Shown here piece after piece: positions 12,801 to 48,238 of a stretch of DNA of 64,000 bases. The stretch spans positions 1,152,001 to 1,216,000 of the forward strand of contig OZ241892.1 of assembly GCA_965203485.1 (NCBI GenBank), in the 5' to 3' direction. Source of the stretch: Longimicrobiales bacterium (GTDB taxonomy: Bacteria > Gemmatimonadota > Gemmatimonadetes > Longimicrobiales > Gaopeijiaceae). The number at the start of each line of letters is the position of its first letter. Position 1 is the stretch's first letter. The notes beneath the pieces were generated by a model. It had not been told where the DNA came from. It searched no databases and saw only the letters and a program-made list of their open reading frames with translations. A program made the translations under genes and the position numbers.

Positions 12801-14545
12801 GTTCGCTGCTCGCTTCGGTCGCCTACGACTCGTGGGCGCTCCACTTCCTGGTGCTGGGCCCGCTTGCGGGGATGCTGCACGTGCTGGCCGCCCCCGCCGC
12901 CCGGGCCAAGCACGTCGCCCTGGCATGGTCGGTGGCCGTGTTCGCCGTCAGCGCAGGACTGTGGTGGGCCTACGATCCCGGCCCCGGCTTCGCGCTCCGC
13001 TCGTCCGCGCCTTGGATTCCGGGCTGGGGCGCGGAGTACGCGCTGGGCGTCGACGGCATCTCCTTGTTCATGGTCATGCTGTCCGCCCTCACCACGCCGG
13101 TCGCTGTCCTCGCCTCCTTCAAGTACATAGAGACGCGCCAGAAGGCGTTCTACGCCCTGATGCTGCTCCTGGCGGCGGGCGTCTCGGGCGTCTTCCTGGC
13201 GACGGACGTTTTTCTCTTCTACGTGTTCTTCGAGCTCACGCTGGTGCCGATGTACTTCATCGTCGGCATCTGGGGCGGCGAGCGGCGCATCTACGCCGCC
13301 GTCAAGTTCTTCCTCTACACGGCGCTCGGATCGCTGCTCATGCTGGCGGCGATTCTCTACGTCTACTTCAAGACTCCGACGGCCTCGTTCAGCTACGCGG
13401 CGTTCCTGGCCGCCGACCTGACGCTGAGCGAGCAGCTCTGGCTCTTTGGCGCCTTCGCGGCGGCGTTCGCCATCAAGGTGCCGGTCTTCCCCCTGCACAC
13501 GTGGTTGCCGGACGCCCACGTCGAGGCCCCCACGCCGGGCTCGGTCGTCTTGGCCGCGGTGCTCCTGAAGGTGGGCGCGTACGGATTTCTGCGCTTCCTG
13601 CTGCCCCTCTTTCCGGATGCGGCGCAGCACCCCGGGGTCGTGGCGACGATGCTGGCGCTGGGCGTCGCGGGCATCGTCTACGCGGCTTGGGTGGCCGCCG
13701 TCCAGCCGGACGCCAAGAAGCTCGTGGCGTACACCTCGGTGGCGCACATGGGCTTCGTGGTCGTCGGCGTCTTTGCGCTCACGGCCAACGGCCTCGTAGG
13801 CGGCTTGATGGTCATGATCAGCCACGGCGTCTCCACGGGCGCGCTGTTCCTGTTGCTCGGGATGATGTACGAGCGCCGCCGCACGCGCCGGATCGAGGAC
13901 TTCGGCGGCCTGGCCAGAGTCGCGCCGCTGTTCTCCACCGCCTTCGTGATCACGGCGCTCGCGTCGATCGGGTTGCCCGGCACGAGCGGCTTCGTCGGCG
14001 AGTTCCTTGCGCTTCTGGGCCTGTTCGAGCGCCACCCGGTTGCGGCGGCGGTGGCCGCGACAGGCGTGATCTTCGCCGCGTACTACATGCTCCCGATGGT
14101 CCAGAAGATCCTTTTCAACAAGCTGGACAAGCCGGAGAACCGGTCGTTCCGCGACCTCTCCCGGCGGGAGTCGGTGATCTTGGCGCCCCTGGTGGCGCTG
14201 ATGATCTGGATCGGCGTGCACCCGGCGCCGGTGCTCGACCGCATGGGTCCCAGCGTGGACGCCGTGCTGGAGCGGGTGCGGGACGCCGGCGGCAGTTCCG
14301 CCGGTGCGGCGTTGTCGGCTGATGGCGTTGCCGTCGCAGTGGGCGCGGCTCGGTCGGCCAGCCAACCGGCGGCGGGCCGGTCGGCGTCCGCGAGCGTCGG
14401 TGGCGCGCTGGCCGGGCCGCCCCAGCCGACGCCGAATCGGCCGGATGCCGTGGGCCGCGGCGGCGAACCGAGGGCGAGTCAGCCGGCGGCCTTGAATCGG
14501 GGCGGCGGCGCGCCGGACCGGTCGGAGAGGGAGCGTACGCCGTGA
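12797..14545 (+). CDS. nuoM: NADH-quinone oxidoreductase subunit M, with low-complexity C-terminal extension
   Basis: FPLHTWLPDAHVEAPT, GLPGTSGFVGEF; GTGA overlap with nuoL. Confidence 0.95.
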   Translation: MSSLLASVAYDSWALHFLVLGPLAGMLHVLAAPAARAKHVALAWSVAVFAVSAGLWWAYDPGPGFALRSSAPWIPGWGAEYALGVDGISLFMVMLSALTTPVAVLASFKYIETRQKAFYALMLLLAAGVSGVFLATDVFLFYVFFELTLVPMYFIVGIWGGERRIYAAVKFFLYTALGSLLMLAAILYVYFKTPTASFSYAAFLAADLTLSEQLWLFGAFAAAFAIKVPVFPLHTWLPDAHVEAPTPGSVVLAAVLLKVGAYGFLRFLLPLFPDAAQHPGVVATMLALGVAGIVYAAWVAAVQPDAKKLVAYTSVAHMGFVVVGVFALTANGLVGGLMVMISHGVSTGALFLLLGMMYERRRTRRIEDFGGLARVAPLFSTAFVITALASIGLPGTSGFVGEFLALLGLFERHPVAAAVAATGVIFAAYYMLPMVQKILFNKLDKPENRSFRDLSRRESVILAPLVALMIWIGVHPAPVLDRMGPSVDAVLERVRDAGGSSAGAALSADGVAVAVGAARSASQPAAGRSASASVGGALAGPPQPTPNRPDAVGRGGEPRASQPAALNRGGGAPDRSERERTP

Positions 14546-21300: not shown

Positions 21301-21813
21301 CTTGTGCAGCCGACGGTGAATCACGGCCATGGTGAGGTGCGGAGAGCCGTTGTCGTCTCGGTGCCGGAAGCAGACGACCGTGGGCATCGGGAAGATGTGG
21401 TTCACGGCTCGGGTGGAGGCGGTGAAGTAGGAGCGCGAGCGGCGCCCGGACTTCAAGTCGACGGCGAGGAACAGGAACGACTTCGCGATGCCGTCGTCGA
21501 AGTGGCTGGCCTGCGTCGAAGAAGTCGGCGGGCTGGGCCGGCCGTCGGTGATGTCGCTCGTCCGCGCAACCTCGTCGTTCGTGAACTGGAAGACGATGTC
21601 CATGTCTTCCCATTGCTCGAACGTGGCCAGCTGACCGGCGGCGAGCCTGTCCGCAGCCCGCACGTCCTCCAGAAAGACGTCGACAGAAGGGAAGTCGATC
21701 GTCCGGTCGCTGCGGTAGCCGAGCGTCCCGAGCAGGGCTTCGGTGCAATCCGCAAGCGATCCGTCGGCCAGATCTCGGAGCGCGTCTCGGATCGTCCTCT
21801 CCGCTTCGCTCAT
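18325..21813 (-). CDS. Eco57I-like N6-adenine DNA methyltransferase, copy A (1162 aa)
   Basis: TGSYYTP, VLDPACGSGAF (motif I), GFDIVIGNPPYV (motif IV); ATG 21813 aligns with the start of copy B. Confidence 0.9.
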   Translation of the reverse strand: MSEAERTIRDALRDLADGSLADCTEALLGTLGYRSDRTIDFPSVDVFLEDVRAADRLAAGQLATFEQWEDMDIVFQFTNDEVARTSDITDGRPSPPTSSTQASHFDDGIAKSFLFLAVDLKSGRRSRSYFTASTRAVNHIFPMPTVVCFRHRDDNGSPHLTMAVIHRRLHKLDADRDVLERVSLIKDVSLENPHRAHLQLLSELAFDQLIQQRKVSNFDELLEAWEAVLDTGELNRRFYADLFAWFQRATKECNFPDDGVGEGNTERHVIRLITRLLFVWFLKEKRLVPDALFEDHFARSQLKHHADDATDYYRAVLQNLFFATLNTEIRRRSFSKKDKSTHRDFTRYRYRDLLRHPDRFAERLRSVPFVDGGLFDCLDDFEHVRGGGRRIDAFTDNIDLPNHGGELSVPARLFFDEGGLFPLFRRYKFTIEENTPLDEEVALDPELLGRAFENLLASYNPETRDTARKATGSYYTPRRVVDYMVDEALVAHFRAHMRPRDGSSSGLEARLRKLVATRSADPGSPAGRQMRDDEVEPLIDAIDSMKVLDPACGSGAFPMGILQKLVSVLAKVDPDNQRWKKRQLARARDIPDPVARRDAVAAVEKSFSPERNYGDYGRKLYLIQNVIHGVDIQPIACQIAKLRFFISLVIEQQSNDDPDDNYGIQALPNLETRFVAADALIGLNGPPQRTLPNTRVKNLEEELEQVRSDWFDARTRDQKWELKKQDKRIRRLLHEALIEDDWGKDAAKLIARWNPYDQNKHACWFDPEWMFGIGDGFDIVIGNPPYVESRNSLLSPEMKDSYGEQVRRDWSESLPRGSDLLIYFYARGLRVLATDGHGCFITHNAWLSTDYGKKFQIFSLNKASFEKIVDTSGKFFSDTRSQNINAVITLFSRTPGKPIEYLVADSRMAFGVKKEIDSVSNMKWGHLIAMPDYLADALHRMSRCDDRPEKKKAIARFGQGLNFPKHALQSNRRDTPILTLTGRAAFAADDAPDRIPSSLARTEDKIPALVMPRGVGNKHYCVFNSCRAFSYSAVELYLPAELWESDLHYSLWAYMNSSLVWLYREVTGRKNLGGGLLKAEATDMKALPVDLSFDFADSARAVFDVLRKREPLPVDQEVRTDEHLAIDEMVLRFFGLEDRQESLRRDLVRQIRFRTKRAKGGV
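19453..21813. repeat. ~2.36 kb direct repeat, copy A
   Basis: Matches 23111-25471 at a constant 3658-bp offset; near-identity ends right after the NPPYV codons. Confidence 0.95.
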
Positions 21814-21841
21814 TCCGGACCTGTCCCGGTTGAGGAGACGG

Positions 21842-24800
21842 TCATGCTGACGTGACGTGCCGCCCCGGACTCGGGGAGCTACGGTCCACACCGATACGTC
21901 GCTCCACTGCCGCAACTTCCTGCGCAGTGAGCTTGTAGAGACGGTACACCAGACGATCCACTCTCTCTTCGATCTCACCGATCGCCGAGTCGTCCCCGTC
22001 TTCCTTTGCTATGTCGATCAGGAGATGGGCCAACTCGACGATGGATCGTTCGTCCTCTCTACTGAGCTTCGGCACCGGGATCGCCTCTACGATGTATTTA
22101 TTCCACTGAGGACGCCCTTTACCGGTCGTCGGTGCGATGCGGTCCACGAGCCACGACACCAGGGTGCTGTTGAGAACAGCGCACAGATAGGGGAGCGACT
22201 CTCCCGACATCACGAACACCTTGTTGTTGCAGTACATCTCGTCGTCGGAATACGCAAATCGTCCGCAGTCGGCTATTTCCATCCAAAAAAGCTTTTCGTG
22301 TCCAAAGCGGGCGTGAGTTTCGTCGCTTGGGCTAGCCTGGAGCTCATACCATGCGTTTGCGCCCGACTTCCTGGACAGGGCCCCCTTATGGCGTTGAAGC
22401 CAGGCGAACACTCCGGGATACCTCTCGATTTCGGTTCCGCGGCGCACCAGTATCAGCCACCGGTCGTTGAATCGAGCGTGCCACCGCCGAATGTCTCGCC
22501 CCTGAAGTAGCGGCTTGACGATCTCGGCTACCCCCGGGTCCTCGGCCAGCAACTGCTCCCGAGTCGCGCCGTTGATTACAAAGGCCTGATTGTAGCCGGT
22601 CTTGATGCCATTGTTCATGATGACTTTCCATTCCTTCAACGGAATGCCTACTGCCTTCTTCATCTTGTCCATGACGCCTTGCTCGATCTTCGACAGCACC
22701 ACCCACGGCTCGGCGTTGCGCGGCCGGAATCGACCCCAGTGCCGATCTTCAGGCGGGAAGTCGCCAACGTTCAAGCGATCCATGTCCACCGTCATGCATG
22801 GGCCTTCGTGTTTGCCCTCGCGCAGGATCAGAATGCTCGAGTCCACGATCGCGTTCTCAAAGACGTCCTTGCCCAGCTCGACCAGCCTAAGCGGTGCATG
22901 GTTCTCGGCAAGAAGCCGTCGCGTCGCCTTGCCGTACGCAGCCCGCAGCCAGCTGTTTGACGTGATGTAGGTCAGTACGCCTTTGCGTGCGGCGAGCAAC
23001 CGGCAACCCTTCTCGTAGAAGAGCTGGTACACGTCGCCTCTTTTCGTGAACGTGCGGTAGCCGCGAGAACCGTACAGCCTCGCAAGAACGCTCCCCTGCT
23101 TCTGTAGCTGCACGTACGGCGGATTTCCGATCACGATGTCGAAGCCGTCGCGGACGCCGAACATCCACTCCGCGTCGAACCAGCAGGCGTGCTTGTTCTG
23201 ATCGTAGGGGTTCCAGCCCGCGATCAGATTGGCGGCCTTCTTGTTCCATTCGTCTTCAGTCAGCGCCTCGTGGAGCCGGCGGCGGATCCGCTTGTCCTGC
23301 TTCTTCAGCTCCCACTTCTGGTCCCGCGTACGGGCGTCGAACCAATCGGATCTGACCTGCTCCAGCTCTTCTTCCAGGTTCTTGACTCTTGTGTTGGGGA
23401 GGGTCCGTTGCGGGGGTCCGTTCAGACCGATCAACGCATCTGCCGCGACGAAGCGGGTCTCCAGGTTCGGCAAGGCCTGGATGCCGTAGTTGTCGTCGGG
23501 ATCGTCGTTGGACTGCTGCTCGATCACCAACGAGATGAAGAAGCGCAGCTTGGCGATTTGGCAGGCGATGGGCTGGATGTCCACGCCGTGGATTACGTTC
23601 TGGATCAGGTACAGCTTGCGACCGTAGTCGCCGTAGTTTCGCTCCGGCGAGAAGCTTTTCTCCACCGCTGTCACGGCGTCCCGCCGGGCCACGGGGTCGG
23701 GAATATCCCGGGCGCGGGCCAATTGGCGTTTCTTCCACCGCTGGTTGTCGGGGTCGACCTTCGCCAGAACCGACACGAGCTTCTGAAGGATGCCCATGGG
23801 GAACGCCCCCGAGCCGCAGGCGGGATCCAGGACCTTCATGGAGTCGATCGCGTCGATCAGAGGCTCGACCTCGTCGTCGCGCATCTGGCGACCGGCTGGC
23901 GAGCCTGGATCGGCGCTCCGCGTCGCGACGAGCTTGCGGAGGCGTGCCTCGAGCCCGGAGCTGGAGCCGTCGCGGGGACGCATGTGGGCACGGAAGTGGG
24001 CGACCAGCGCCTCGTCCACCATGTAGTCCACGACGCGACGGGGCGTGTAGTAGGAGCCCGTGGCCTTGCGGGCCGTGTCGCGCGTCTCGGGGTTGTAGGA
24101 GGCCAGCAGGTTCTCGAAGGCGCGGCCCAGAAGCTCGGGGTCGAGCGCCACTTCCTCGTCCAGCGGCGTGTTCTCTTCGATGGTGAACTTGTAGCGGCGA
24201 AACAACGGGAAGAGACCGCCCTCATCGAAGAACAGCCGGGCCGGGACCGACAGCTCGCCGCCGTGGTTCGGGAGGTCGATGTTGTCGGTGAACGCGTCGA
24301 TGCGACGACCGCCGCCGCGCACATGCTCGAAGTCGTCCAGGCAGTCGAACAGGCCGCCGTCCACGAACGGAACGGAGCGGAGCCGCTCCGCAAAGCGGTC
24401 GGGGTGGCGGAGCAAGTCATGATAGCGGTATCTGGTGAAGTCTCGATGCGTGCTCTTGTCCTTCTTGCTGAAGGATCGGCGGCGTATCTCCGTGTTCAAC
24501 GTGGCAAAGAACAGGTTCTGCAGCACGGCGCGGTAGTAGTCGGTAGCGTCGTCCGCGTGATGCTTCAGCTGGCTCCGGGCGAAGTGATCCTCGAAGAGGG
24601 CGTCGGGCACTAGACGCTTCTCCTTGAGGAACCAGACGAACAACAAGCGGGTGATCAAGCGGATGACGTGCCGCTCCGTGTTGCCCTCGCCCACGCCGTC
24701 GTCGGGAAAGTTGCATTCCTTCGTCGCTCGCTGGAACCAAGCGAAGAGGTCCGCGTAGAAGCGGCGATTCAGCTCGCCCGTGTCGAGGACGGCTTCCCAC

Positions 24801-25471
24801 GCTTCAAGGAGCTCGTCGAAGTTGGAGACCTTGCGTTGTTGGATCAGCCGGTCGAACGCAAGCTCCGAGAGCAGCTGAAGATGCGCGCGATGAGGATTCT
24901 CCAGGCTCACGTCCTTGATGAGCGACACGCGCTCGAGGACGTCCCTGTCGGCGTCCAACCTGTGCAGCCGACGGTGAATCACGGCCACGGTGAGGTGCGG
25001 AGAGCCGTCGTCGTCTCGGTGCCGGAAGCAGACGACCGTGGGCATCGGGAAGATGCGGTTCACGGCTCGGGTGGAGGCCGTGAAGTAGGAGCGCGAGCGG
25101 CGTCTGGACTTCAAGTCGACGGCGAGGAACAGGAACGACTTCGCGATGCCGTCGTCGAAGTGGCTGGCCTGCGTCGAAGAAGTCGGCGGGCTGGGCCGGC
25201 CGTCGGTGATGTCGCTCGTCCGCGCAACCTCGTCGTTCGTGAACTGGAAGACGATGTCCATGTCTTCCCATTGCTCGAACGTGGCCAGCTGACCGGCGGC
25301 GAGCCTGTCCGCAGCCCGCACGTCCTCCAGAAAGACGTCGACAGAAGGGAAGTCGATCGTCCGGTCGCTGCGGTAGCCGAGCGTCCCGAGCAGGGCTTCG
25401 GTGCAATCCGCAAGCGATCCGTCGGCCAGATCTCGGAGCGCGTCTCGGATCGCCGTCTCCGCTTCGCTCAC
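21842..25471 (-). CDS. Eco57I-like N6-adenine DNA methyltransferase, copy B (1209 aa)
   Basis: Same motifs I and IV; TaqI-C-like TRD (IKTGYNQAF, GRDIRRW, YLCAVLNS). Confidence 0.92.
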   Translation of the reverse strand: MSEAETAIRDALRDLADGSLADCTEALLGTLGYRSDRTIDFPSVDVFLEDVRAADRLAAGQLATFEQWEDMDIVFQFTNDEVARTSDITDGRPSPPTSSTQASHFDDGIAKSFLFLAVDLKSRRRSRSYFTASTRAVNRIFPMPTVVCFRHRDDDGSPHLTVAVIHRRLHRLDADRDVLERVSLIKDVSLENPHRAHLQLLSELAFDRLIQQRKVSNFDELLEAWEAVLDTGELNRRFYADLFAWFQRATKECNFPDDGVGEGNTERHVIRLITRLLFVWFLKEKRLVPDALFEDHFARSQLKHHADDATDYYRAVLQNLFFATLNTEIRRRSFSKKDKSTHRDFTRYRYHDLLRHPDRFAERLRSVPFVDGGLFDCLDDFEHVRGGGRRIDAFTDNIDLPNHGGELSVPARLFFDEGGLFPLFRRYKFTIEENTPLDEEVALDPELLGRAFENLLASYNPETRDTARKATGSYYTPRRVVDYMVDEALVAHFRAHMRPRDGSSSGLEARLRKLVATRSADPGSPAGRQMRDDEVEPLIDAIDSMKVLDPACGSGAFPMGILQKLVSVLAKVDPDNQRWKKRQLARARDIPDPVARRDAVTAVEKSFSPERNYGDYGRKLYLIQNVIHGVDIQPIACQIAKLRFFISLVIEQQSNDDPDDNYGIQALPNLETRFVAADALIGLNGPPQRTLPNTRVKNLEEELEQVRSDWFDARTRDQKWELKKQDKRIRRRLHEALTEDEWNKKAANLIAGWNPYDQNKHACWFDAEWMFGVRDGFDIVIGNPPYVQLQKQGSVLARLYGSRGYRTFTKRGDVYQLFYEKGCRLLAARKGVLTYITSNSWLRAAYGKATRRLLAENHAPLRLVELGKDVFENAIVDSSILILREGKHEGPCMTVDMDRLNVGDFPPEDRHWGRFRPRNAEPWVVLSKIEQGVMDKMKKAVGIPLKEWKVIMNNGIKTGYNQAFVINGATREQLLAEDPGVAEIVKPLLQGRDIRRWHARFNDRWLILVRRGTEIERYPGVFAWLQRHKGALSRKSGANAWYELQASPSDETHARFGHEKLFWMEIADCGRFAYSDDEMYCNNKVFVMSGESLPYLCAVLNSTLVSWLVDRIAPTTGKGRPQWNKYIVEAIPVPKLSREDERSIVELAHLLIDIAKEDGDDSAIGEIEERVDRLVYRLYKLTAQEVAAVERRIGVDRSSPSPGRHVTSA
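23111..25471. repeat. ~2.36 kb direct repeat, copy B
   Basis: Near-identical to 19453-21813, with substitutions concentrated toward both ends. Confidence 0.95.
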
Positions 25472-36593: not shown

Positions 36594-36611
36594 CCCCCCC
36601 CCCCCCCCCCC
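36594..36611. repeat. C18 homopolymer upstream of the adhesin
   Basis: 18 consecutive C. Confidence 0.95.
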
Positions 36612-36667: not shown

Positions 36668-39600
36668 ATGCCGGTAGCGAGAACCGCGCTCGCGGCCCTC
36701 GGCCTGCTGGCGGCGTTCGGGACCACGGCGCCGGTGCCGCTGAGCGCCCAAAGCGTGGACAGTCTTAAGATCGTCAGCTCGGCGGGTTCGGACAACACGT
36801 ACGCGGCGGGCGACACCATCAAGATCAGGGCGTACTTCAGTGCCGGTGTGGACTTTGCCCAAAGCGACGGTGCGGCCGTGCATATGACGATCGGGACGAC
36901 GACCAGGCACGCACAGGCGAGGACTGGAACCGGAACGTTCGCCGAAGGTACCCCACTTCCAGGATACAGCAATGGGTTCAGCTGGATAGAGTATTGGTAC
37001 CTTGTGCAGACGTCGGACATGGACGCGGACGGGATCAGCGTCACCCAGATGGGTCCTAACGATCTGGACGGTGGCGTCAGTGGTCTACGAATCAACGAGA
37101 GCTTGACGGGCAAGACGATCACGAACGCTGCGGCCCACAAGGTGGACGGCGCCCAGGGGTTGCCCCAGGTGACGGGGGTGACGATATCCAGCAGCACGGG
37201 CGCCGACAGCACGTACTATGCTGGCGACACGATTGCGGTGACGGTGGCGTTCGACTCGACCGTGGCGGTGACGGGCACGCCGCAGCTGGCGCTGTGGGTC
37301 GGCGACTCGACGCGGCAGGCGAACTACGCGAGCGGGACGGGTTCGGCGTCGCTGGTGTTCCGGTACGTGGTGGCGTCGTCGGACATGGACGCGGACGGGA
37401 TTAGCATCGGCGCGAGCGCGTTGTCGCTGAACAGCGGGACGATCCGGTTGGGGACGAAGAACGCGGTCCTGAGCCTGAGCGGCTACACGATCACGAACCC
37501 TGCGGCTCACAAGGTGCAAGGGGGGACGGCGAGGCGGACGGTGACCGGTGTTGCGTTGGCGAGCACGCCGGTAGCTGCGGACAGCACGTACGGTCGGGCG
37601 GAGCGGATTCGTGTGGCAGTGGTGTTCAGCGGGAACGTGGACGTGACGGGGACGCCGCAGCTGGCGCTGACGATCGGCACGCAGACGCGGCAGGCGTCCT
37701 ACGCGAGCGGGACGGGCACGGACACGCTGGTGTTCGAGTACGCTGTGGTGGCGGCGGACACGGACGCGAACGGGCTGAGCATCGGCGCGAGCGCGCTGGC
37801 GGCCCCGTCCGGCGCGACGATCAGGAACGCGGGCACGACGGTGGGCGCGACGCTGTCGCTCGGCAGTCACGCGGTCACGAACGCTGGTGCGCACAAGGTG
37901 AACGGCGCGCTGATCGTGCCGAGGATATCGGCGGTGACGTTCTTGAGCGGCGCGGGCACGGACTCGACGTACGCTGCGGGGGACAACATCAACGTGCGGG
38001 TTCAGTTCGACCGGCCGGTGGTGACGCCGAACTTCCTGGGCAACATGACGCTGAACCTGGAGATTGGGGACAACGTTCGGGCGGCGGGCTGGTACTCGAA
38101 GGACGCGGACGACGTGTTCTTCCGGTACACGGTGACGCGTGCGGACGCGGACGCGGACGGGATCAGCATCCCGGCGAACGCTTTCAGGAACTTCGCGACG
38201 CCGATCACGCGCGTCGGGGGCACGGAGCGTGCGGACTTGTCGCTGGGCGTGCATGCGGTGGCGAACGCTGCGGCGCACAAGGTGGACGGTTTGCAGGGCG
38301 TGCCTGTGGTGGCGGGCGCGGGTCTGGCGAGCGTGACGGGCTCGGACGGGACGTACGGGGTGGGCCAGCGGATCGAGGTGTGGGTGAAGTTCAGCGAGGC
38401 GGTGGACGTGACGGGCACGCCGCAGGTGGCGTTGGGGATCGGGGCGGCGACGCGTCAGGCGGGCTACGCGGGCGGGACGGGGACGGATTCGCTGACGTTC
38501 CGTTACGTGGTTCAGGCGACGGACGCGGACGCGGACGGGTTGAGCATCGGCGCGAGCGCGTTGGGATTGAACAGCGGGACGATCAACAAGGCGGGCGCGT
38601 CGGTGGCGGCGGAGCTGGGACTGGGTTCTCATGCGATCGCGAACGCTGGGGCGCACAAGGTTGCGGGCGACCGTCCAGTGGTGACGGGCGTGTCGCTCAA
38701 CGAAGCTCCGGCGGACAGCACGTTCGAGTTGAGCGACGTGGTGGTCGTGACGGTGGAGTTCAACGCGGCGGTGACGGTGGCGCCCACGACGGGCGCAAGC
38801 AGGCCGCGTGTGCGTGTCGGGGTCGGGTCGGGCTTGAAGAACGCGTTTTACGCGAGGGGTTCGGGTACGACGGCGTTGGAGTTCGAGTACACGGTGTTCC
38901 AGGCGGACGCGGACGCGGACGGGATCAGCATCGGGGCGAGCGCACTGGAGACCCCGTCCGGGAGCACGATTCGGCGGATGGGGACGACGACGGACGCGGT
39001 GTTGGGCCTGGGCGCGCATGCGATAACGAACAGCGCGGCGCACAAGGTGGCGGGCAACACGCGGACGGCGCCTGTGGTGAAGGGGTTGAGGGTCACGAGC
39101 AGTCCTGTGGTTGGGGACACGTACTTGGCGGGCGAGGCGATCGAGGTGGAGGTGGCGTTCGTGCGGGGGGTGTACGTGGCGGGGACGCCGCGTCTGGCTT
39201 TGGAGGTCGGCGACTCGACGCGGCAGGCGGAGTACAACCGCAGGGACGCGACGTTCACGCGGGTGACGTTCCGGTACGTGGTGCAGGCGACGGACGCGGA
39301 CGCGGACGGGATCAGCGTGGGTGCGGGCGCTTTGGCGGCGAGCGCGTCGGACACGATCGCGGACGGTCGGTTGTGGTCGGACGCGGCGGACTTGGCGTTG
39401 GGGTCGCACGTGTTCACGAATGCTGGGGCGCACAAGGTTTCGGGCGCCGTTCCGTACGTGACGAGCGTGTTCTTCATGTCGGCGTCGAACACGGGGATTT
39501 CGTACGCGAGCACGGACAGCGTGTTCGGACTTGGGGACGAGATACGTGTGGGGGTGGGGTTCAACGCGGGGGTGACGGTGGCGGGGACGCCGCGCCTGGC

Positions 39601-42600
39601 TTTGGGGATCGGTGCGCAGACGCGGAGCGCTGCGCAGTGCGACGCGGTAACGAGCGGCAACATCGTGGTGTTCTGCTATACGGTGGTTGCGGCGGACGCG
39701 GACACGACGGGAATCAGCATCGGAGCGAACGCTTTGACGTTGCCGGGCGGCGCGACGATTCGAGCGGCGGGGGCGGCGACGGACGCTCGGCTGTCGTTGG
39801 CGCAGTGGAGCTTCGCGGACGCGGTGGAGTACCAGGTGGACGGGACGAAGGAGGTGGCGCCTGGCGTGGCGGGGGTGGCGATCACGAGCGCGCCGGCGAG
39901 CGACAGCACGTACGGACGCACGGAGGCGATCGAGGTGGAGGTGGAGTTCGAGCGTGCGGTGGCGGTGACGGGCACGCCGCAGCTGGCCTTGGGGATCGAC
40001 ACGCTGACGCGTCAGGCGGGCTACGCGAGCGGGAGCGGTACGCGGACGCTGGTGTTCCGTTACGTGGTGGCGGCGGCTGACGCGGACACGAGCGGGATCA
40101 GCGTGGGCGCGAGCGCGTTGGCTCTGAACGGCGGGACGATTGTGCTTTCGGGCGGCACGGCGGCGGCGGCGTTGGGTTTGGGCAGCCATGCGGTCGCGAA
40201 CGCTCGTTCGCACAAGGTGGACGGGAGCCTGGGATCGCCGGGCGTGACGGGGTTGTCGATCGGTTCGCCTGCGGTGGGCGACGTGTTCGAGCGCGGCGAG
40301 ACGATCGAGGTGTCGGTGGTGTTCCACCGCGCGGTGGACGTGGGGGGCACGCCGCAACTGGCGCTGGGCATCGGGAGCGCGACCAGGCAGGCGGAGTACG
40401 CGAGCGGGACGGGGACGGACACGCTGGTGTTCGGGTACGTGGTGGCGGTCGGCGACGCTGACGCGGACGGGTTGAGCATTGCGGCGGGCGCGTTGACGTT
40501 GAACGGCGGGACGATCCGGCTGGCCGGCGGGACGCTGGACGCGACGCTGGACTTGGGGTCGCACGCGGTTGCGAACAGCGCGGGGCACAAGGTGACGGGC
40601 GCGTTCGTGGCGTCGGCGGTGAGCGGCGTGACGGTGTCGAGCGCGCCAGCGAGCGCGAGCACGTACGAGCTGGGCGAGTCTATCGAGGTGAAGGTGGCGT
40701 TCACGCGCGACGTGGCGGTGACGGGGACGCCGCGACTGGCCTTGGGGATCGGTACGGTCACGCGCCAAGCGGACTACGATTCGGGTTCGAGCAGTGCGGA
40801 CACGCTGGTGTTCGGGTACGCGGTCCGGCCTGCGGACGCGGACGCGGACGGATTGAGCATTGCGGCGGGCGCGCTGGGGTTGAACGGCGGTACGATCGAC
40901 GACGCTCGTCCGGGCATCGGCGCTGCGAGCCTGGATTTGGGGTCGAACGCGATAGCGAACGCTGCGGCGCACAAGGTGAACGGCGGGTTGGGCCCGCCTG
41001 GGGTGACGGGGTTGGCGGTGGCGCCGCCGCCGGCGGGCGCGGTGTTCGAGCGCGGCGACACGATTGTTGCGACGGTGCGGTTCAACAAGGCGGTGGACGT
41101 GACGGGCACGCCGCAGCTGGCGCTGGGGATCGGGGCGCAGACGCGGCAGGCGGCGTATGCGAGCGGGACGGGCACGGCGGCGCTGGTGTTCCGGTACGTG
41201 GTGGCGACGGCGGACGTGGACTTGGACGGGTTGAGCGTTGGCGCGAGCGCACTGGCGCTGAACAGCGGCACGATCGACGTGTCGGGCGGGACGACGGACG
41301 CGTTGCTGAGCTTGGAGCGCCATGCGTTCGAGAACTTCCTGGTGGTGAACGGCGGGCTGTTCACGGCGTCGTCGGTGAGCGGCGTGTCGATATCGAGCAG
41401 TCCAGCGAGCGACAGCACGTACGGTCGCACGGAGCGGATCGAGGTCGAGGTGACGTTCGCCCGCGCGGTGGCGGTGACGGGCACGCCGCAGCTGGCGTTG
41501 ACGATCGGCGACTCGACGCGCCAGGCGAGCTACGCGAGCGGGAGCGGCACGAAGACGCTGGCGTTCGGCTACGTGGTGGTGGCTGCGGACGCGGACGCGA
41601 ACGGTTTGAGCATCGGGCCGGCCGCGCTGGCGTTGAACGGCGGTGCGATCGACGACGCGCGCGACGCGAGCGAGGCTGCGGGCCTGGGTCTGGGGAGCCA
41701 TGCGATATCGAACGCTTTGGCGCACAAGGTGAACGGGAGCCTGGGCCCGCCCGGCGTGACGGGCGTGACGCTCGGCTCGCCGCCGGTGGGCACGACGTTC
41801 GAGCGGGGCGACACGATCGTGGCGACGCTGGCGTTCAACCGGGCGGTGGCGGTGACGGGCGCGCCGCAGCTGGCGCTGGGGATCGGGAGCGCGACGAAGC
41901 AGGCGGTCTACGCGAGCGGGAGCGGCACGTCGTCGCTCGAGTTCCGGTACGTGGTGGTGACGGCGGACGTGGACGCCGACGGGTTGAGCGTCGCGACGAC
42001 GGCGCTGGGATTGAACGGCGGTACGGTTCGGCTGGCGGGCGGGACGCTGGACGCGACTTTGGGGTTGGGCACGCACGCGATATCGAACAGCGCGGGCCAC
42101 AAGGTTGCGGGCGGGACGTTCACGGCGTCTGGCGTGACGGGGGTGGCGGTCGCGAGCAGTCCTGCGAGCGGCGCGACGTACGGGTTGGGCGAGCGGATCG
42201 AGGTTCGGGTGACGTTTGCGCGCGCTGTGGCGGTGACGGGCACGCCGCAGCTGGCGCTGTCGTTCGGCGCTGCGACGCGGCAGGCGGACTACGCGGGCGG
42301 CACGGGCACGCCGCAGCTGGCGTTCGGCTACGTGGTCGTCGCGGGCGACGCCGACTCCGACGGGCTCAGCATCGGCGCGAGCGCTTTGGCGCTGAACGGC
42401 GGCGGGATCGCGGACGGTCGCGACGGTTCGACGGCGGCGGCGCTGGGCCTGGGTTCGAGCGCGGTCACGGACGCTGGGGGCCACCGCGTGGACGCGACGC
42501 GCGGCCCGCCGGGGGTGATGGGCGTGACGATCGGGTCGCCGCAGGTGGGCGACACGTTCGAGCGCGGCGACACGGTCGAGGTCGAGGTCGAGTTCAACAA

Positions 42601-45600
42601 GCCGGTGGCGGTGACGGGCGCGCCGCAGCTGGCGCTGGGCATCGGCGCTGCGACGAAGCAGGCGGGCTACGCGGGCGGGAGCGGGACGGCTGCGCTGGCG
42701 TTCCGGTACGTGGTCGTGTCCGCCGACGCGGACGCCGACGGGCTCAGCGTCGCGGCGGGCGCTTTGGCGCTGAACGGCGGGACGATCAAGGTGTCGGGCG
42801 GCACGGCGGACGCTTTGCTGGGCCTGGGCGCGCACGCGGTGGCGAACAGCGGGGGCCACAAGGTTGCGGGCGGGACGTTCACGGCGTCGTCGCCGAGCGC
42901 GGCGTCGGTGACGAGCGCGCCGGCGAGCGGCGACACGTACGGGTTGGGCGAGCGCATCGAGGTACGGGTGACGTTCGCTCGCCCGGTCGTCGTGACGGGC
43001 GCGCCGCAGCTGGCGCTGGGCATCGGCGCGGCGACGAAGCAGGCGGGCTACGCGGGCGGCAGCGGGACGCGCGCGCTGGTGTTCGGCTACGTGGTCGCGT
43101 CTGCGGACGCGGACGCCGACGGGATCAGCGTGGGCGCGAGCGCGCTGTCGTTGAACGGCGGCGCGATAGCCGACGCGCGCGACGGGTCGACGGCTGCCGG
43201 GCTGGGCCTGGGCTCGAGCGCGATTGCGAACGCTGGCGCGCACAAGGTGGACGGCAGCGTCGAGGGCGCGCCGGCGGTTGCGGGCGCTCGGCTGGCGAGC
43301 GCGCCGTCGGGCGGCGGGTCGTACGGACTGGGCGAGGAGATACGGGTGGCGGTGCGCTTCGACCGCGCGGTGGCGGTGACGGGCACGCCCGAGCTGGCGC
43401 TGGGCATCGGCGCCGCGACGCGGCAGGCGGGCTACGCGAGCGGGAGCGGCACGTCCGAGCTCGAGTTCGCGTACGTGGTTCAGGCGGCGGACGCCGACAG
43501 GGACGGGATCAGCGTTGGCGCGGGCGCGTTGTCGCTGAGCGGCGGGACGCTGGTGGTCGCGGGCGGCACGGCGGCGGCGGTTCTGTCGCTGGGGAGCCAC
43601 GCGATAGTGAACGCGAGCGGCCACGCCGTCGCCGGCACGCTCGAGGCGGCGCCGGTCGTGACGGGCGCGCGGCTGGTATCGTCGCCTGCGAACGGGAGCG
43701 CTTACGGGTTGAGCGAGCGGATCGCCGTCGCGCTGGCGTTCAGCCGTCCGGTCGACGTTGCGGGCGCGCCGCAGCTGGCGCTGGGCATCGGGAGCGCGAC
43801 GCGGCAGGCGGGCTACGCGAGCGGGAGCGGCACGGCCGAGCTGGTGTTCGGCTACGTCGTCGCGGGCGGCGACGCCGACGCCGACGGCGTGAGCGTCGCG
43901 GCGGGCGCGCTGGCCTTGAACGGCGGGACGATCGTGATCGCGGGCGGGCGCGTGGCGGCGGTGCTGTCGCTGGGCACGCACGCGCTGTCGAACGTCGCGG
44001 GCCACCTGGTGGACGGGAGCGTCGAGACGGCGCCTGCCGTGGCGGGCGTGACGCTGGCGAGCGCGCCGATCGGCGGCGGCCGCTACGAGCTGGGCGAGGA
44101 GATCCGCGTGCACGTGCGCTTCGACCGCGCCGTCGCCGTGACGGGCTCGCCGCAGCTGGCGCTGACGATCGGCGCGCAGACGCGCACGGCGCGCTTCGTG
44201 CGCGTCGTCGGCTACGGCGCCGCCGCGCGCGCGGGCTGGGCCGGCGTCGCGGCGGGCTATGCAGGCGCGCGCTGGGCCGGCGGGTCGGCGGGCGGCGCAG
44301 GCGGTTCCGCCGGCGCGTTGGGCGCGACGCAGGGCGCGGCGCTCGAGTTCGCGTACGCCGTTCAGGCGTCGGACGCCGACGCGGACGGGATCAGCGTGGG
44401 CGCGGGCGCGCTGTCGCTGAACGGCGGCGCGATCACGCTGCTGGGCGGCACGGCGGCGGCTGGACTGTCGCTGGGCGGCCACGCGCTGACGAACGTCGGC
44501 GGCCACTTGGTGGACGGCAGCGTCGTGTCGCCGCCTGCGGTCGCGGGCGTCGAGGCGAGCCGTCCGCCGTCGGGCGGCCGGTGGCGCGCCGGCCAGACGA
44601 TCGAGATCGCCGTCGTGTTCGACCGGCCGGTGAGCGTGACGGGCGGCCCGCGCTTGGCGCTGGCGATGGGCACGCGCACGGTGCACGCCGCGCTGGCGTC
44701 GGCGAGCGGGCGGCGCGTCGAGTTCGCGTACGAGGTGCGTCCTCACGACCGCGCGCCGAACGGGATCGCGCTGGCCGCCGGCGCGCTGGACGCGAGCGGC
44801 GCGGCGATCGTGTCGGCCGCCGACGGTTCGACGCCGGCCGCGCTGTCGCTGGGCAGCCATGCGTTCGCAAGCGATCCGACGCGCAGGGTCGAGGGCGGCG
44901 GCGGCGAGCCGGAGCCTGGGCGGCCGCCGAAGTTCTCGGCCGAGTCGTACGCGTTCGAGCTGGCCGAGAACGTCGCGGGCGCCGTCGTCGTGGGCGCCGT
45001 GAGCGCCGTGGACCCGGACGAGGGCGACGAGGTGCGCTACCGGCTGCGCGAGGGCGGCGGCGGGCTGTTCGAGGTGGACGAGACGAGCGGCGAGGTCAGC
45101 TACGTCGGCGCGGGCGAGGACTACGAGGCCGGCCCGCGCGAGCACGCGCTCGTCGTGTCGGCCGCCGACGTCGGCGGCCTGGCGTCGACCGTCCGCGTGA
45201 CGGTGAAGGTGACGAACGCGAACGAGGCGCCGGCGTTCGAGCGGGCGAGCTGGACGTTCGAGCTGGCCGAGAACGCGGCCGGGCCCATAGTGCTGGGCAC
45301 GGTCAGCGCGACCGACCCGGACGAGGGCGAGGCGCTGTCGTACAGCCTGGTCTCGGGCGGCGGCGGGCTGTTCGAGCTGGACGCTGCGAGCGGCGCCGTG
45401 CGCTACGTCGGCGCCGGCGAAGACTACGAGACGGGCCCGCGCGAGCACGCGCTGGCCGTCGCCGTCGCCGACGCGGGCGGGCTGCGCGCGGCGGCCGGCG
45501 TCGTGATAGCCGTCGCCGACGCCGACGAGGCGCCCGTGTTCGAGCGGGCGAGCTGGACGTTCGAGCTGGCCGAGAACGCGGCCGGGCCCGTCGTGCTGGG

Positions 45601-48220
45601 CACGGTGTCGGCGACCGACCCGGACGAGGGCGAGGCGCTGTCGTACGGCCTGGTCTCGGGCGGCGGCGGCCTGTTCGAGCTGGACGCTGCGACCGGCGAG
45701 GTCAGCTACGTGGGCGCCGGCGAGGACTACGAGACGGGCCCGCGCGAGCACGCGCTCGTCGTCGCCGCGACGGGCGCCGACGGCCTCGCCGCGCAGGCGG
45801 CCGTCGTCGTGACGGTCGCCGACGTGAACGAGGCGCCCGTGTTCGAGCAGGCGAGCTGGACGTTCGAGCTGGCCGAGAACGCGGCCGGCCCGCTCGCCGT
45901 CGGCGCCGTCGCCGCCGCCGACGAGGACGAGGGCGACGTGCTGTCGTACAGCCTCGTCTCGGGCGGCGGCGGCCTGTTCGAGCTCGACGCGTCGACCGGC
46001 GAGGTCAGCTACGTGGGCGCCGGCGAGGACTACGAGACGGGCCCGCGCGAGCACGCGCTCGTCGTCGCCGCGACGGACAGGGGCGGCTTGGCGGCGACGG
46101 CGAACGCGACCGTCGTCGTGACCGACGTCAACGAGGCGCCCGAAGCGACGGCGCAGATCGCCGTCCCGGCGCTCGACGCGCACGGCGCGTCCGTGCAGGA
46201 GACGCTGGACGCGTACTTCCGGGACCCGGACGGCGACGCGCTCGCGTACGCCGCCGAGTCGTCCGACACGGCGGTGGCGGCGGCGAGCGTGGCGGGCGGC
46301 GTGCTGACCATCCGGCCGTTCGCTATCGGCACGGCGAGCGTGACCGTGACGGCGACCGATCCCGGCGGGCTGGCCGCCGAGCAGACCGTCGCCGTCGTCG
46401 TCGAGGCGTCGCGCTCCGAGCGAGCGCGCGTGCTCGAGGGCGCGCTGGCCGCGTTCGGACGCTCGCTCGGCGCCGAGGCCGTCGACGTGATCGGCGGCCG
46501 GTTCGGGATCGAATCGGCGGGCGGACTCGGACGCTCGCACCTCCAGCTCGGAGGACGCGCCGTCGGTTGCGGCGGCGGCTTCGCGCAACGGGCGGAGGAC
46601 CCGGTTGGGGCCGCCGGGGCGGCGCAGGCGGGGGCGGGTGCCGAAACGGGCGCTCGAGCGTGCGGCTGGCAGGCGCTGGCGCGCGCCGCGTCCGGCCTGC
46701 TCGGCGTCCAAGTCGCGTTGCCGAGCGTCGGCGGCCTGGGCGGCGCGCAGGCCGCCGCCGCGCTCGACCCGGCCGCGTTGCTGTTCGGCGGCACTGGAGC
46801 AGGCGGATTCGGCGGCCCGGCAGGCGCCGCCGCCCCCGGACTCGGCGTTGCCGGCGACTACCGGGGCCAGCAGGAGCCGGCGGCGCCCGCGCCGGGCGGC
46901 GTGACGCTCAACCCGCTGTCGGGCGGCGACCTGCTCGAGCGCAGCTCGTTCCAGCTCTCGCTCGGCGGCGGCGCGGCCAGCGATCCGGCGGGCGCGTTCG
47001 GCGCGCAGGACGCCGCCGGCCTGCGTCCCGGCTGGACCGTCTGGGGCCGCGCCGGCATGGGCGGCTACGAGGGCCGCCCGGCCGACGGCCTGCGCTTCGG
47101 CGGCGGGCGCGCGCGCTCGGCGCACCTCGGCGCCGACTACCGCTTCGCGTCCGGCCTGCTCGTCGGCGTCGCCGGCGCGCGCAGCAGCTTCGAGACCGAG
47201 TTCGAGAGCGCCGTCAACGGCGCCGGCTCCGTCGCCGCGAGCCTGACCAGCGTGCATCCCTACGTGCACTGGTCGCCCACCGGCGGGCTCGGCCTCTGGG
47301 CCCTCGCAGGCGCCGGAACCGGCGACGCGACGCTCGACGAAACCGCCGGCGGCCGGTTCGGCGCCGACATCGCGATGCTGATGGGCGCGCTCGGCGCGCG
47401 CCGCGAGCTGGCCGGCGGCATCGCGCTCAAGGCCGACGCGTTCTCCGTGCGCGTCCGCTCCGACGACGCGGCCGACCTGGCAGGCGTGACCGCGCGCGCG
47501 CACCGCGTCCGGCTCGCGCCCGAAGTCGCGAAGACCTGGGCGCTCGGCGGCGAAGCGTCGCTGCGCACGCGGCTCGAGCTCGGCGCGCGCCTCGACGCCG
47601 GCGACGCCGAGACCGGCCTCGGCGCCGAGGCCGGCGGCGAAGCGTCGTTCGACCACGCGCCCACCGGCCTGTCCGTCGCGATGCGCGGGCGCGCGCTGCT
47701 CGCGCACCAGGCCGAGGGGCTGCGCGAATGGGGCGCCGGCGTCTCGCTCCGGCTCCAGCCCGGCGGCGACGCCGAGAACGGCCTGTCGCTCTCCGTCGAG
47801 CCGGCATGGGGCGCCGCCACCGGCGCCACCGGCGAACTCTGGCGCCAAGGCCCCGCCGCCATCGGCCCCGCCGCCCAGGCGGCGCACCCGGTTGCGCACC
47901 AGGCCGCGCCGTCCGGCTGGGCGCCCGGACGCATGGCCATGGAGCTCGGCTGGGGCGTCGCGCTCGACAACGGCGCCACGATCACGCCCTTCGGACGCTG
48001 GAGCCAGGACGCCGGCGCCGGCCAGCGCTTCAACGCCGGCGCGCGCTTCTCGCTGCTCGGCCCGTCCGTCCAGTCCGGCACGCGCGCCGCCACGGACGCC
48101 TCCTCGCCCGCCGCCGAGAGCCTGCGCTTCCTCCTCCACCTCTACGGCGAGCACGCCTCCTCGCCGCTCGAACCCCCGCAACGCCGCCTCGGCCTAGCAG
48201 GCGTCGTCCAGCTCAGGTAG
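36668..48220 (+). CDS. Giant autotransporter-type adhesin (~3850 aa)
   Basis: Signal peptide MPVARTALAALGLLAAF...LSA/Q; 21 ~125-aa beta-rich repeats with DxDxDG; 4 cadherin repeats (FELAEN...DPDEG...DYE); one further Ig-like domain; C-terminal barrel (WTVWGR, LGADYR, HPYVHW). Frame is open from 36509. Confidence 0.88.
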   Translation: MPVARTALAALGLLAAFGTTAPVPLSAQSVDSLKIVSSAGSDNTYAAGDTIKIRAYFSAGVDFAQSDGAAVHMTIGTTTRHAQARTGTGTFAEGTPLPGYSNGFSWIEYWYLVQTSDMDADGISVTQMGPNDLDGGVSGLRINESLTGKTITNAAAHKVDGAQGLPQVTGVTISSSTGADSTYYAGDTIAVTVAFDSTVAVTGTPQLALWVGDSTRQANYASGTGSASLVFRYVVASSDMDADGISIGASALSLNSGTIRLGTKNAVLSLSGYTITNPAAHKVQGGTARRTVTGVALASTPVAADSTYGRAERIRVAVVFSGNVDVTGTPQLALTIGTQTRQASYASGTGTDTLVFEYAVVAADTDANGLSIGASALAAPSGATIRNAGTTVGATLSLGSHAVTNAGAHKVNGALIVPRISAVTFLSGAGTDSTYAAGDNINVRVQFDRPVVTPNFLGNMTLNLEIGDNVRAAGWYSKDADDVFFRYTVTRADADADGISIPANAFRNFATPITRVGGTERADLSLGVHAVANAAAHKVDGLQGVPVVAGAGLASVTGSDGTYGVGQRIEVWVKFSEAVDVTGTPQVALGIGAATRQAGYAGGTGTDSLTFRYVVQATDADADGLSIGASALGLNSGTINKAGASVAAELGLGSHAIANAGAHKVAGDRPVVTGVSLNEAPADSTFELSDVVVVTVEFNAAVTVAPTTGASRPRVRVGVGSGLKNAFYARGSGTTALEFEYTVFQADADADGISIGASALETPSGSTIRRMGTTTDAVLGLGAHAITNSAAHKVAGNTRTAPVVKGLRVTSSPVVGDTYLAGEAIEVEVAFVRGVYVAGTPRLALEVGDSTRQAEYNRRDATFTRVTFRYVVQATDADADGISVGAGALAASASDTIADGRLWSDAADLALGSHVFTNAGAHKVSGAVPYVTSVFFMSASNTGISYASTDSVFGLGDEIRVGVGFNAGVTVAGTPRLALGIGAQTRSAAQCDAVTSGNIVVFCYTVVAADADTTGISIGANALTLPGGATIRAAGAATDARLSLAQWSFADAVEYQVDGTKEVAPGVAGVAITSAPASDSTYGRTEAIEVEVEFERAVAVTGTPQLALGIDTLTRQAGYASGSGTRTLVFRYVVAAADADTSGISVGASALALNGGTIVLSGGTAAAALGLGSHAVANARSHKVDGSLGSPGVTGLSIGSPAVGDVFERGETIEVSVVFHRAVDVGGTPQLALGIGSATRQAEYASGTGTDTLVFGYVVAVGDADADGLSIAAGALTLNGGTIRLAGGTLDATLDLGSHAVANSAGHKVTGAFVASAVSGVTVSSAPASASTYELGESIEVKVAFTRDVAVTGTPRLALGIGTVTRQADYDSGSSSADTLVFGYAVRPADADADGLSIAAGALGLNGGTIDDARPGIGAASLDLGSNAIANAAAHKVNGGLGPPGVTGLAVAPPPAGAVFERGDTIVATVRFNKAVDVTGTPQLALGIGAQTRQAAYASGTGTAALVFRYVVATADVDLDGLSVGASALALNSGTIDVSGGTTDALLSLERHAFENFLVVNGGLFTASSVSGVSISSSPASDSTYGRTERIEVEVTFARAVAVTGTPQLALTIGDSTRQASYASGSGTKTLAFGYVVVAADADANGLSIGPAALALNGGAIDDARDASEAAGLGLGSHAISNALAHKVNGSLGPPGVTGVTLGSPPVGTTFERGDTIVATLAFNRAVAVTGAPQLALGIGSATKQAVYASGSGTSSLEFRYVVVTADVDADGLSVATTALGLNGGTVRLAGGTLDATLGLGTHAISNSAGHKVAGGTFTASGVTGVAVASSPASGATYGLGERIEVRVTFARAVAVTGTPQLALSFGAATRQADYAGGTGTPQLAFGYVVVAGDADSDGLSIGASALALNGGGIADGRDGSTAAALGLGSSAVTDAGGHRVDATRGPPGVMGVTIGSPQVGDTFERGDTVEVEVEFNKPVAVTGAPQLALGIGAATKQAGYAGGSGTAALAFRYVVVSADADADGLSVAAGALALNGGTIKVSGGTADALLGLGAHAVANSGGHKVAGGTFTASSPSAASVTSAPASGDTYGLGERIEVRVTFARPVVVTGAPQLALGIGAATKQAGYAGGSGTRALVFGYVVASADADADGISVGASALSLNGGAIADARDGSTAAGLGLGSSAIANAGAHKVDGSVEGAPAVAGARLASAPSGGGSYGLGEEIRVAVRFDRAVAVTGTPELALGIGAATRQAGYASGSGTSELEFAYVVQAADADRDGISVGAGALSLSGGTLVVAGGTAAAVLSLGSHAIVNASGHAVAGTLEAAPVVTGARLVSSPANGSAYGLSERIAVALAFSRPVDVAGAPQLALGIGSATRQAGYASGSGTAELVFGYVVAGGDADADGVSVAAGALALNGGTIVIAGGRVAAVLSLGTHALSNVAGHLVDGSVETAPAVAGVTLASAPIGGGRYELGEEIRVHVRFDRAVAVTGSPQLALTIGAQTRTARFVRVVGYGAAARAGWAGVAAGYAGARWAGGSAGGAGGSAGALGATQGAALEFAYAVQASDADADGISVGAGALSLNGGAITLLGGTAAAGLSLGGHALTNVGGHLVDGSVVSPPAVAGVEASRPPSGGRWRAGQTIEIAVVFDRPVSVTGGPRLALAMGTRTVHAALASASGRRVEFAYEVRPHDRAPNGIALAAGALDASGAAIVSAADGSTPAALSLGSHAFASDPTRRVEGGGGEPEPGRPPKFSAESYAFELAENVAGAVVVGAVSAVDPDEGDEVRYRLREGGGGLFEVDETSGEVSYVGAGEDYEAGPREHALVVSAADVGGLASTVRVTVKVTNANEAPAFERASWTFELAENAAGPIVLGTVSATDPDEGEALSYSLVSGGGGLFELDAASGAVRYVGAGEDYETGPREHALAVAVADAGGLRAAAGVVIAVADADEAPVFERASWTFELAENAAGPVVLGTVSATDPDEGEALSYGLVSGGGGLFELDAATGEVSYVGAGEDYETGPREHALVVAATGADGLAAQAAVVVTVADVNEAPVFEQASWTFELAENAAGPLAVGAVAAADEDEGDVLSYSLVSGGGGLFELDASTGEVSYVGAGEDYETGPREHALVVAATDRGGLAATANATVVVTDVNEAPEATAQIAVPALDAHGASVQETLDAYFRDPDGDALAYAAESSDTAVAAASVAGGVLTIRPFAIGTASVTVTATDPGGLAAEQTVAVVVEASRSERARVLEGALAAFGRSLGAEAVDVIGGRFGIESAGGLGRSHLQLGGRAVGCGGGFAQRAEDPVGAAGAAQAGAGAETGARACGWQALARAASGLLGVQVALPSVGGLGGAQAAAALDPAALLFGGTGAGGFGGPAGAAAPGLGVAGDYRGQQEPAAPAPGGVTLNPLSGGDLLERSSFQLSLGGGAASDPAGAFGAQDAAGLRPGWTVWGRAGMGGYEGRPADGLRFGGGRARSAHLGADYRFASGLLVGVAGARSSFETEFESAVNGAGSVAASLTSVHPYVHWSPTGGLGLWALAGAGTGDATLDETAGGRFGADIAMLMGALGARRELAGGIALKADAFSVRVRSDDAADLAGVTARAHRVRLAPEVAKTWALGGEASLRTRLELGARLDAGDAETGLGAEAGGEASFDHAPTGLSVAMRGRALLAHQAEGLREWGAGVSLRLQPGGDAENGLSLSVEPAWGAATGATGELWRQGPAAIGPAAQAAHPVAHQAAPSGWAPGRMAMELGWGVALDNGATITPFGRWSQDAGAGQRFNAGARFSLLGPSVQSGTRAATDASSPAAESLRFLLHLYGEHASSPLEPPQRRLGLAGVVQLR
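36755..44895 (+). repeat. 21 tandem Ig-like repeats
   Basis: Recurring TY..G..I.V.V.F...V.V.G.PQL.L.IG...R.A.Y..GSG...L.F.Y.V...DADADG...HKV.G; counted by eye. Confidence 0.85.
44925..46140 (+). repeat. 4 tandem cadherin repeats (~303 bp)
   Basis: Near-identical DNA units, e.g. gcgagctggacgttcgagctggccgagaac near 45246, 45549 and 45852. Confidence 0.88.
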
Positions 48221-48238
48221 CCCCCCCCCCCCCCCCCC
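48221..48238. repeat. C18 homopolymer directly after the adhesin stop codon
   Basis: TAG (48218-48220) followed by 18 C. Confidence 0.95.

Follow-up and report, generated by a model that had tools for sequence, protein, structure and literature searches.

Silent sites in a giant autotransporter-like adhesin gene carry a skew that runs from G over most of the gene to C at its 3' end. We read this ramp as the trace left by biased conversion between paralogues, in which C:C mismatches would escape repair and G:G mismatches would be rejected (probability about 0.55). That gene conversion is the cause of the skew is highly probable; that the bias arises from the escape of C:C mismatches is an even call. 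The gene lies in a 64,000-nucleotide stretch of DNA, here called the window (G000:C1:1152001-1216000), from a genome, G000, that consists of a single 3.56-Mb contig with 69% GC. The closest named records were MAGs of Longimicrobiales (Gemmatimonadota), whose best segment was 88-92% identical.

A G-to-C ramp along the adhesin gene

The gene occupies positions 36668..48220 on the plus strand of the window (3,851 codons). A preliminary description of this DNA had run it from 37160 to 48220; the 3' end stood, and the likely start was moved to an ATG at 36668, after which the N-terminus resembles a signal peptide by eye, as do the starts of paralogues. Twenty tandem units of about 125 amino acids (36760..44500), anchored by D.D.DG motifs from 37016 to 44372, matched no Pfam or NCBIfam family. 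The adjacent four cadherin repeats (44948..46140) are unshifted at silent sites (about +0.3 to -0.4) and are followed by a bacterial Ig domain, Big_9 (46130..46396), with a score slightly below the Pfam cut-off, and by a predicted autotransporter beta-barrel region (46868..48217), which had an Atlas feature score of 0.96 to PF03797 clusters and no Pfam barrel match. With a putative signal peptide, a passenger and a predicted barrel, the product is a candidate type V autotransporter adhesin and is here called autotransporter-like. One C18 tract (36594..36611, plus strand) ends 57 nt 5' of the likely start, and a second (48221..48238, plus strand) immediately follows the stop codon.

The skew was confirmed as real. 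Four-fold-site skew, (G-C)/(G+C) per 200 codons, was +0.63 to +0.81 over 37109-41300 and had dropped to +0.04 at 44909; values of -0.36 to -0.54 were reached over 46709-48220. Ordinary genes averaged -0.007 on the leading strand (sd 0.14, n=1,018) and -0.03 on the lagging strand (sd 0.13, n=660), and the two upstream flanking genes stood at -0.27 and -0.18, the two downstream at -0.08 and +0.43. After correction for amino acids, the plateau lay at about +2 log-odds, and none of 1,671 chunks of 300 codons from unique genes reached +1.7. The last 300 codons came to -0.83 (z -5.5), a value as low as which was found in 0.4% of the same chunks. Repeat units 1-11 had G-shifts of +1.7 to +2.9, the last unit was down to +0.4 and the C-rich tip within the barrel region reached -0.7 to -1.3; the slope of the ramp had z 17.8.

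The hand counts of the preliminary description were exact (G31/C15 at 38401, G32/C10 at 39121, G19/C31 at 47821 and G11/C32 at 48121), and its two spellings of DADADG were located at 38522 and 43871. Its claim of a reversal held for the G-rich front and C-rich end, although the change is a smooth ramp rather than a flip. Its claim of G- and T-ending codons in the 5' part held for G: all eight codon boxes were shifted in one direction, with G replacing A-ending codons, while the T excess at four-fold sites was mild (about 8-10% T at the front, falling to 1-3% by the end) and two-fold C/T sites were not shifted to T, remaining C at 0.92-0.96 compared to about 0.89 genome-wide. The adhesin sequence is not an assembly artefact, because contigs from two short-read runs matched several stretches of the gene with 0 differences.

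Several candidate causes were rejected. The C-rich end survived correction for amino-acid composition, next-base context and GC content (-0.88, z -5.7), and a general 3'-end codon trend was rejected since no metagene trend was found from start or stop. Cytosine deamination was rejected on the unshifted two-fold sites of the adhesin; two-fold sites were, however, shifted in the tuf genes of genomes G034 and G053. The preliminary description had named a flip coinciding with the replication terminus as a refutation of its reading. Cumulative skew was maximal at 1,411,997 (terminus about 1.412 Mb) and minimal at 3,219,558, beside dnaA at 3,218,677, positions from which the plus strand was assigned as leading at the adhesin. 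The gene ends at 1,200,220, 212 kb from the terminus, and the terminus switch was therefore rejected as well. Separately, five long single-copy genes starting at G000:C1:75629, 89347, 2567245, 3458664 and 3501179 had C-shifted ends (-0.7 to -1.7 over the last 150-450 codons), which perhaps reflect inter-strain recombination.

When the ramp was split by sequence context, sites after C remained G until the last 400 codons, and sites before G dropped from +1.8 to -3.1 along the gene; unique genes had no after-C or before-G effect. This split shows two mirrored processes, and the strand-asymmetric term crossed zero near 45,940, about 760 codons 5' of the stop. A strand-symmetric form of the bias is found in a 4,388-codon gene with poly-C upstream (G000:C1:2777187-2790350), the tandem repeats of which have been stripped of CC as well as GG at silent sites (G after C at 128 of 129 sites, G before G at 3 of 69).

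Paralogues, partner identity and copy number

Eight other full-length copies of the adhesin were found in the genome, all on the leading strand and mostly 95-100% identical over the final 7.3 kb. All nine carry the ramp despite lengths of 3,744 to 13,359 codons, because this 3' 7.3 kb is common to them. The block common to the gene and its paralogues at 90% identity or more covers 38363..48231 on the plus strand, carries the ramp and is a mosaic of segmental conversion, with 2 partners from about 38.4 kb, 8 from about 39.7 kb and 9 from about 45.7 kb. The nearest copy switches by segment, with identical tracts of 0.9-1.7 kb, and the copies at 1,250,285 and 2,971,339 differ by 10.1% at 40.4-42 kb and by 0.1% at 43.5-45 kb. 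These patterns show that segments are exchanged among the paralogues by conversion.

Among 230 repeat units away from the 3' end, the shift rose from 0.81 where the best partner was below 75% identity to 1.75 where it was above 95%. The same dependence was found inside the 13,359-codon gene (rho 0.78), in which units lacking a close partner ranged from near 0 to +0.9, whereas most of those that had one fell at +1.1 to +2.5. This member (G000:C1:2971339-3011415) contains 88 repeat units and has a G22 rather than a C tract 104 nt upstream in the sense strand. Other members include a gene frameshifted near 1,499,690 into frames of 3,058 and 7,390 codons (G000:C1:1477524-1508857) and a truncated 3' copy (G000:C1:348142-350451). 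The genome also has an adhesin locus duplicated in its entirety, as two near-identical 14.4-kb copies with C20 and C18 tracts (G000:C1:711672-726036 and 734870-749230).

The preliminary description had bounded the skew by the C18 tracts, and one explanation holds that the two tracts, as G4 or stall sites, trigger resynthesis from each end. Sense poly-C does lie at the start or no more than 400 nt upstream in 7 of the 9 full-length copies, and both tracts are present in this copy, but the 3' tract is confined to it and the other eight copies have the ramp all the same. Twelve unique genes with a tract nearby or inside were unskewed (halves at -0.39 to +0.56), and tuf and gene 951553 are skewed and have no tracts. 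Resynthesis from the tracts is refuted as the main cause and is extremely unlikely. The preliminary interpretation was thus supported in part: a strand-asymmetric process that acts with opposite polarity from either end fits the data, but the ends are the edges of the homology block and not the C18 tracts. The upstream C18 is likely a phase-variation tract, and a promoter scan at this tract found nothing.

Copy number of the elongation factor gene tuf provided a further comparison. In G000, tufA and tufB (G000:C1:535785-536997 and 555400-556613) have 0 differences, and their identity ends at the gene edges. Their four-fold sites are G164/C22, compared to -0.44 in fusA and values near 0 in the ribosomal-protein genes between and around them. 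Across Gemmatimonadota, with each tuf shift corrected by the genome's own neighbour genes and with kin that are not independent, 16 single-copy genomes ranged from -0.6 to +0.1 and 20 two-copy genomes from -0.0 to +3.2 (median 1.5). Four of the 16 single-tuf genomes are single contigs, G051 is represented by one copy and G135 has a broken second copy; G019, G047 and G093 were left out of all counts. Diverged pairs (130 and 136 differences) gave -0.0 and +0.4, and G107 (4 differences, +0.4) and G021 (14, +0.6) were exceptions. The effect is weaker and noisier outside Gemmatimonadota: in the class of G146, 16 two-copy tuf ranged from +0.1 to +2.1 and 4 single ones from -0.4 to +0.3, and in the phylum of G147, 6 two-copy tuf ranged from -2.1 to +2.0 and 8 single ones from -0.8 to +0.3. 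A further exception is G235 (0 differences, +0.1). The closed genomes G007 and G033 retain the secE-side tuf copy alone, with ordinary tuf codons. These comparisons showed that skew is present only with a near-identical partner copy. Expression-linked codon choice was rejected, because ribosomal-protein genes and single-copy tuf are ordinary.

In an inherited mosaic, or a non-equilibrium history, a G-rich passenger would have been joined to a C-rich barrel of different origin and the product copied to all paralogues; the nine copies do count as a single observation. A single-copy orthologue of the adhesin in genome G001 has the C-rich tip too, and the last 400 codons had no net flux against it (16 vs 15), so that the tip is partly inherited; the preliminary description's mosaic of donors therefore holds for the tip, and not for the rest of the gene. 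Net G gain against this orthologue was -1, -6, +4, +16 and +21 sites moving away from the 3' end, and the ramp has thus grown after the split. An inherited mosaic is also at odds with a smooth ramp across seven repeat units, with the shared polarity of tuf and insertion sequence-like elements and with other families that are only 66-70% alike in the barrel and have the same ramp, and it leaves the G-richness of the passenger unexplained. It is largely refuted as a full account and is improbable. In four families that were homogenised separately, from G001, G002 and two named relatives, the shift is about 0 at the stop and climbs to about +2 at a distance of 4-5 kb, so that their 3' tip is near 0 and not negative. 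Dehalococcoidia-titled records contain homologues that lean to C or are flat; as these values are uncorrected for their own codon usage, they were set aside.

Mutagenic repair remains the chief rival of biased transmission, although we regard it as unlikely. It proposes that damaged single-stranded DNA or an error-prone polymerase in the repair tract makes strand-specific C-to-G changes that are then transmitted without bias, and it accounts equally well for the links to duplication, strand and edge. The genome encodes two Y-family (IMS) genes, the CC-to-CG context effect could be a mutational signature, and error-prone replication was proposed by the authors of the GRINS paper (PMC8256042). 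Variants among adhesin copies are mostly C/G, G/C transversions being the commonest four-fold polymorphism in 6 of 6 bins. The G/C frequency spectrum was flat across 8 copies; it is uninformative on transmission bias and counts as a point against the lead reading. Against mutagenic repair, deamination would deplete the two-fold C that is retained in the adhesin, and the 164 G to 22 C of tuf would need a very large local excess of mutation, yet the two copies are identical.

Replication strand, block edges and a candidate mechanism

Skew sign tracks the replication strand rather than the coding strand. In the lagging-strand gene G000:340636, a sense-strand value of -2.5 was obtained for the tandem repeat, against values near 0 for the unique parts. 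Among co-oriented blocks, the leading strand was G-rich in 15 of 17, including 4 of 5 in lagging genes. Blocks 960086 (-0.37) and 2109589 (-0.35) are exceptions. An oppositely oriented pair gave +0.9 and no slope. Both tuf copies of G206 lie on the C-rich replichore strand and are C-rich (-2.1); dnaA of this genome lies at a positive-to-negative skew switch, which indicates either an inverted chromosome skew or a lagging-strand tuf. Within the window, two tandem minus-strand genes (18325-25471; 1,163 and 1,210 codons) have a 2.4-kb common block and are weakly skewed, +0.3 on the leading strand.

These observations bear on selection at the level of mRNA, according to which a G-rich, C-poor transcript evades Rho termination and the constraint is relaxed near the 3' end. 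A purine bias against Rho is described for Bacillus in the accessible part of one paper (PMC13323073), and within the plateau avoidance is strongest for CC and TC codons. Selection on the transcript is contradicted by repeats in lagging genes and by the G206 tuf pair, which are C-rich in sense, by unique units of the 40-kb gene that are near 0, and by single-copy tuf and highly expressed neighbours, which have no shift. The absence of a metagene trend and the fact that TTC is not avoided further weigh against it, and it is very unlikely.

What this analysis adds is the polarity: on a given strand, G is seen toward the 5' edge of the common block, and the 3' edge is where C is found. One block per family with enough sites was chosen out of about 100 repeat regions; among these 29 blocks, ramp slope exceeded z 3 in 7 and fell below -3 in 1, compared to 2.4% and 2.1% of unique genes (n=1,403). 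Five multi-copy elements in mixed orientation, which we take to be insertion sequences from the starts of their proteins, sloped in the same direction in 5 of 5 cases. The insertion sequence-like elements at G000:C1:269765-272726, 12638-14181 and 2103917-2105690 had end-to-end G-to-C ramps (z 9.2, 5.0 and 7.2), and tandem 341817 had a slope of the reverse sign (z -4.4). Over its last ten codons, tuf totalled G16/C87 in two-copy genomes and G47/C70 in single-copy ones. Per 40 codons, G000 tuf ran from 22/0 to 20/0 (G/C) and then 7/15, and G206 tuf was its mirror, 8/11 and then 1/13 to 0/20. In the literature covered, mostly papers outside subscription, nothing was found on skew polarity in converting bacterial repeats.

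Biased conversion would produce such a polarity as follows. A new strand copied from the donor would pair with the recipient strand, and MutS would reject G:G and miss C:C, such that C is retained on the new strand. Copying would proceed 5' to 3', so sites near the 3' edge would be covered most often and gain C, and a gain of C at the 3' edge of one strand would read as G toward the 5' edge of the other, yielding a ramp. If lagging-strand events outnumbered leading-strand ones, a G offset would be added on the leading strand. The accessible parts of two E. coli studies report that C:C is corrected very poorly and G:G best, and that uptake of lagging-strand ssDNA is up to 30-fold better (PMC3167615, PMC2920528). 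By analogy with E. coli, the same C:C specificity may apply in this organism, the genome of which contains MutS and MutL genes; searches of it gave no hit for NucS and found no RecT-type annealing protein. A C20 tract lies about 80 nt 5' of mutS (G000:C1:2516940-2516959), and mismatch repair is possibly phase-variable through it.

tuf and the adhesin differ in shape. The profile of tuf stays on a plateau and steps down within its last 15 codons, whereas that of the adhesin is a 7-kb ramp; ramp length differs some thirty-fold, and no one parameter set fits both. A scale-free model, log((L-y)/y), was the best of three for the adhesin (slope 0.83); for tuf it was outperformed by a step placed in the last 20 codons, and it was not the best for 3 of 5 other families either.

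Comparison with known systems

Giant surface genes with an upstream homopolymer tract are familiar from poly-C phase-variable autotransporters and other contingency loci. The adhesin resembles these by its upstream tract, one of more than 40 poly-C-type homopolymer tracts in this genome, and its skew is a separate matter.

Concerted evolution of tufA and tufB likewise involves homogenisation tracts of about 1 kb that are limited by homology edges and filtered by MutS, as described in the accessible parts of two papers (PMC5485169, PMC6053082). Conversion of Salmonella tuf is modelled there as symmetric (Paulsson et al. 2017, PMC5485169), the available text of PMC6053082 does not contain the words 'skew' or 'composition', and the portions available of both papers report no base bias. 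Oligonucleotide recombination at the E. coli fork would give the predicted direction, through lagging-strand preference and C:C escape (accessible parts of PMC3167615, PMC2920528). It is an experimental system with added ssDNA, and its extension to conversion between natural paralogues is by analogy.

A broader generalisation, that the specificity of mismatch repair imposes a systematic strand and edge bias on bacterial gene conversion, is offered tentatively, as a possibility that is short of likely. If true, it would explain GRINS: MutS organisms would have mainly GC skew, as here, in NucS organisms GC skew would go together with a correlated TA skew, and changes of sign within GRINS would be edge ramps. 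NucS removes G:G, G:T and T:T, according to the accessible parts of PMC11551767 and PMC6159521. The same bias in ordinary recombination repair could add to chromosome-wide GC skew, a contribution suggested because tuf bias agrees in sign with the replichore skew around it in G000 and G206 and, with more noise, in G180. An edge-anchored ramp that is mirrored on a change of replichore strand is a rule open to testing both at the bench, in a laboratory strain, and on genomes already available, and the ramp would serve as a sequence-only readout of which repeats convert and in which direction. A caution also follows for duplicated tuf, a standard for optimal codons and phylogeny, which can be recoded non-selectively.

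The closest known system is GRINS, a described phenomenon that qualifies the preliminary description's remark that it knew no described mechanism: the phenomenon had been reported, in a paper that calls the mechanism unknown, with both signs on one strand unexplained by strand-bias models (PMC8256042). The available part of a 2023 follow-up added no mechanism, and the accessible supplement text of the original paper lacks 'elongation factor', 'leading strand', 'lagging' and 'mismatch' (PMC8256042). GRINS, too, are long stretches of duplicated coding DNA under conversion and are common in transposases; their intense GC skew peaks at third positions and takes both signs on the same strand (PMC8256042). 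Against a GRINS threshold of more than 500 bp at more than 80% identity, the adhesin has 9.9 kb at 90% or more with up to 9 partners, and conversion between copies is evident in its segment switching and identical tracts. In windows of 150 nt (step 30), mean absolute GC skew over 38363-48231 was 0.181, above the GRINS threshold of 0.15 and the controls (0.08-0.09), and mean absolute TA skew was 0.099, below both the same threshold and the controls (0.14-0.16). The GC/TA correlation typical of GRINS, which lies outside the formal definition, was absent (r = 0.01 overall, 0.35 in the 5' part). The adhesin skew thus works like GRINS and is a non-member by definition, as its TA skew falls short. 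It further differs in that the change is a smooth, edge-anchored ramp here and abrupt in GRINS, and in that the sign here is tied to the replication strand. The GRINS paper proposes that skew comes before conversion and promotes it; the copy number of tuf here points to the reverse order, with the skew produced by conversion. The adhesin skew is a GC-only, edge-polarised variant of GRINS-type skew, for which biased conversion is the mechanism proposed.
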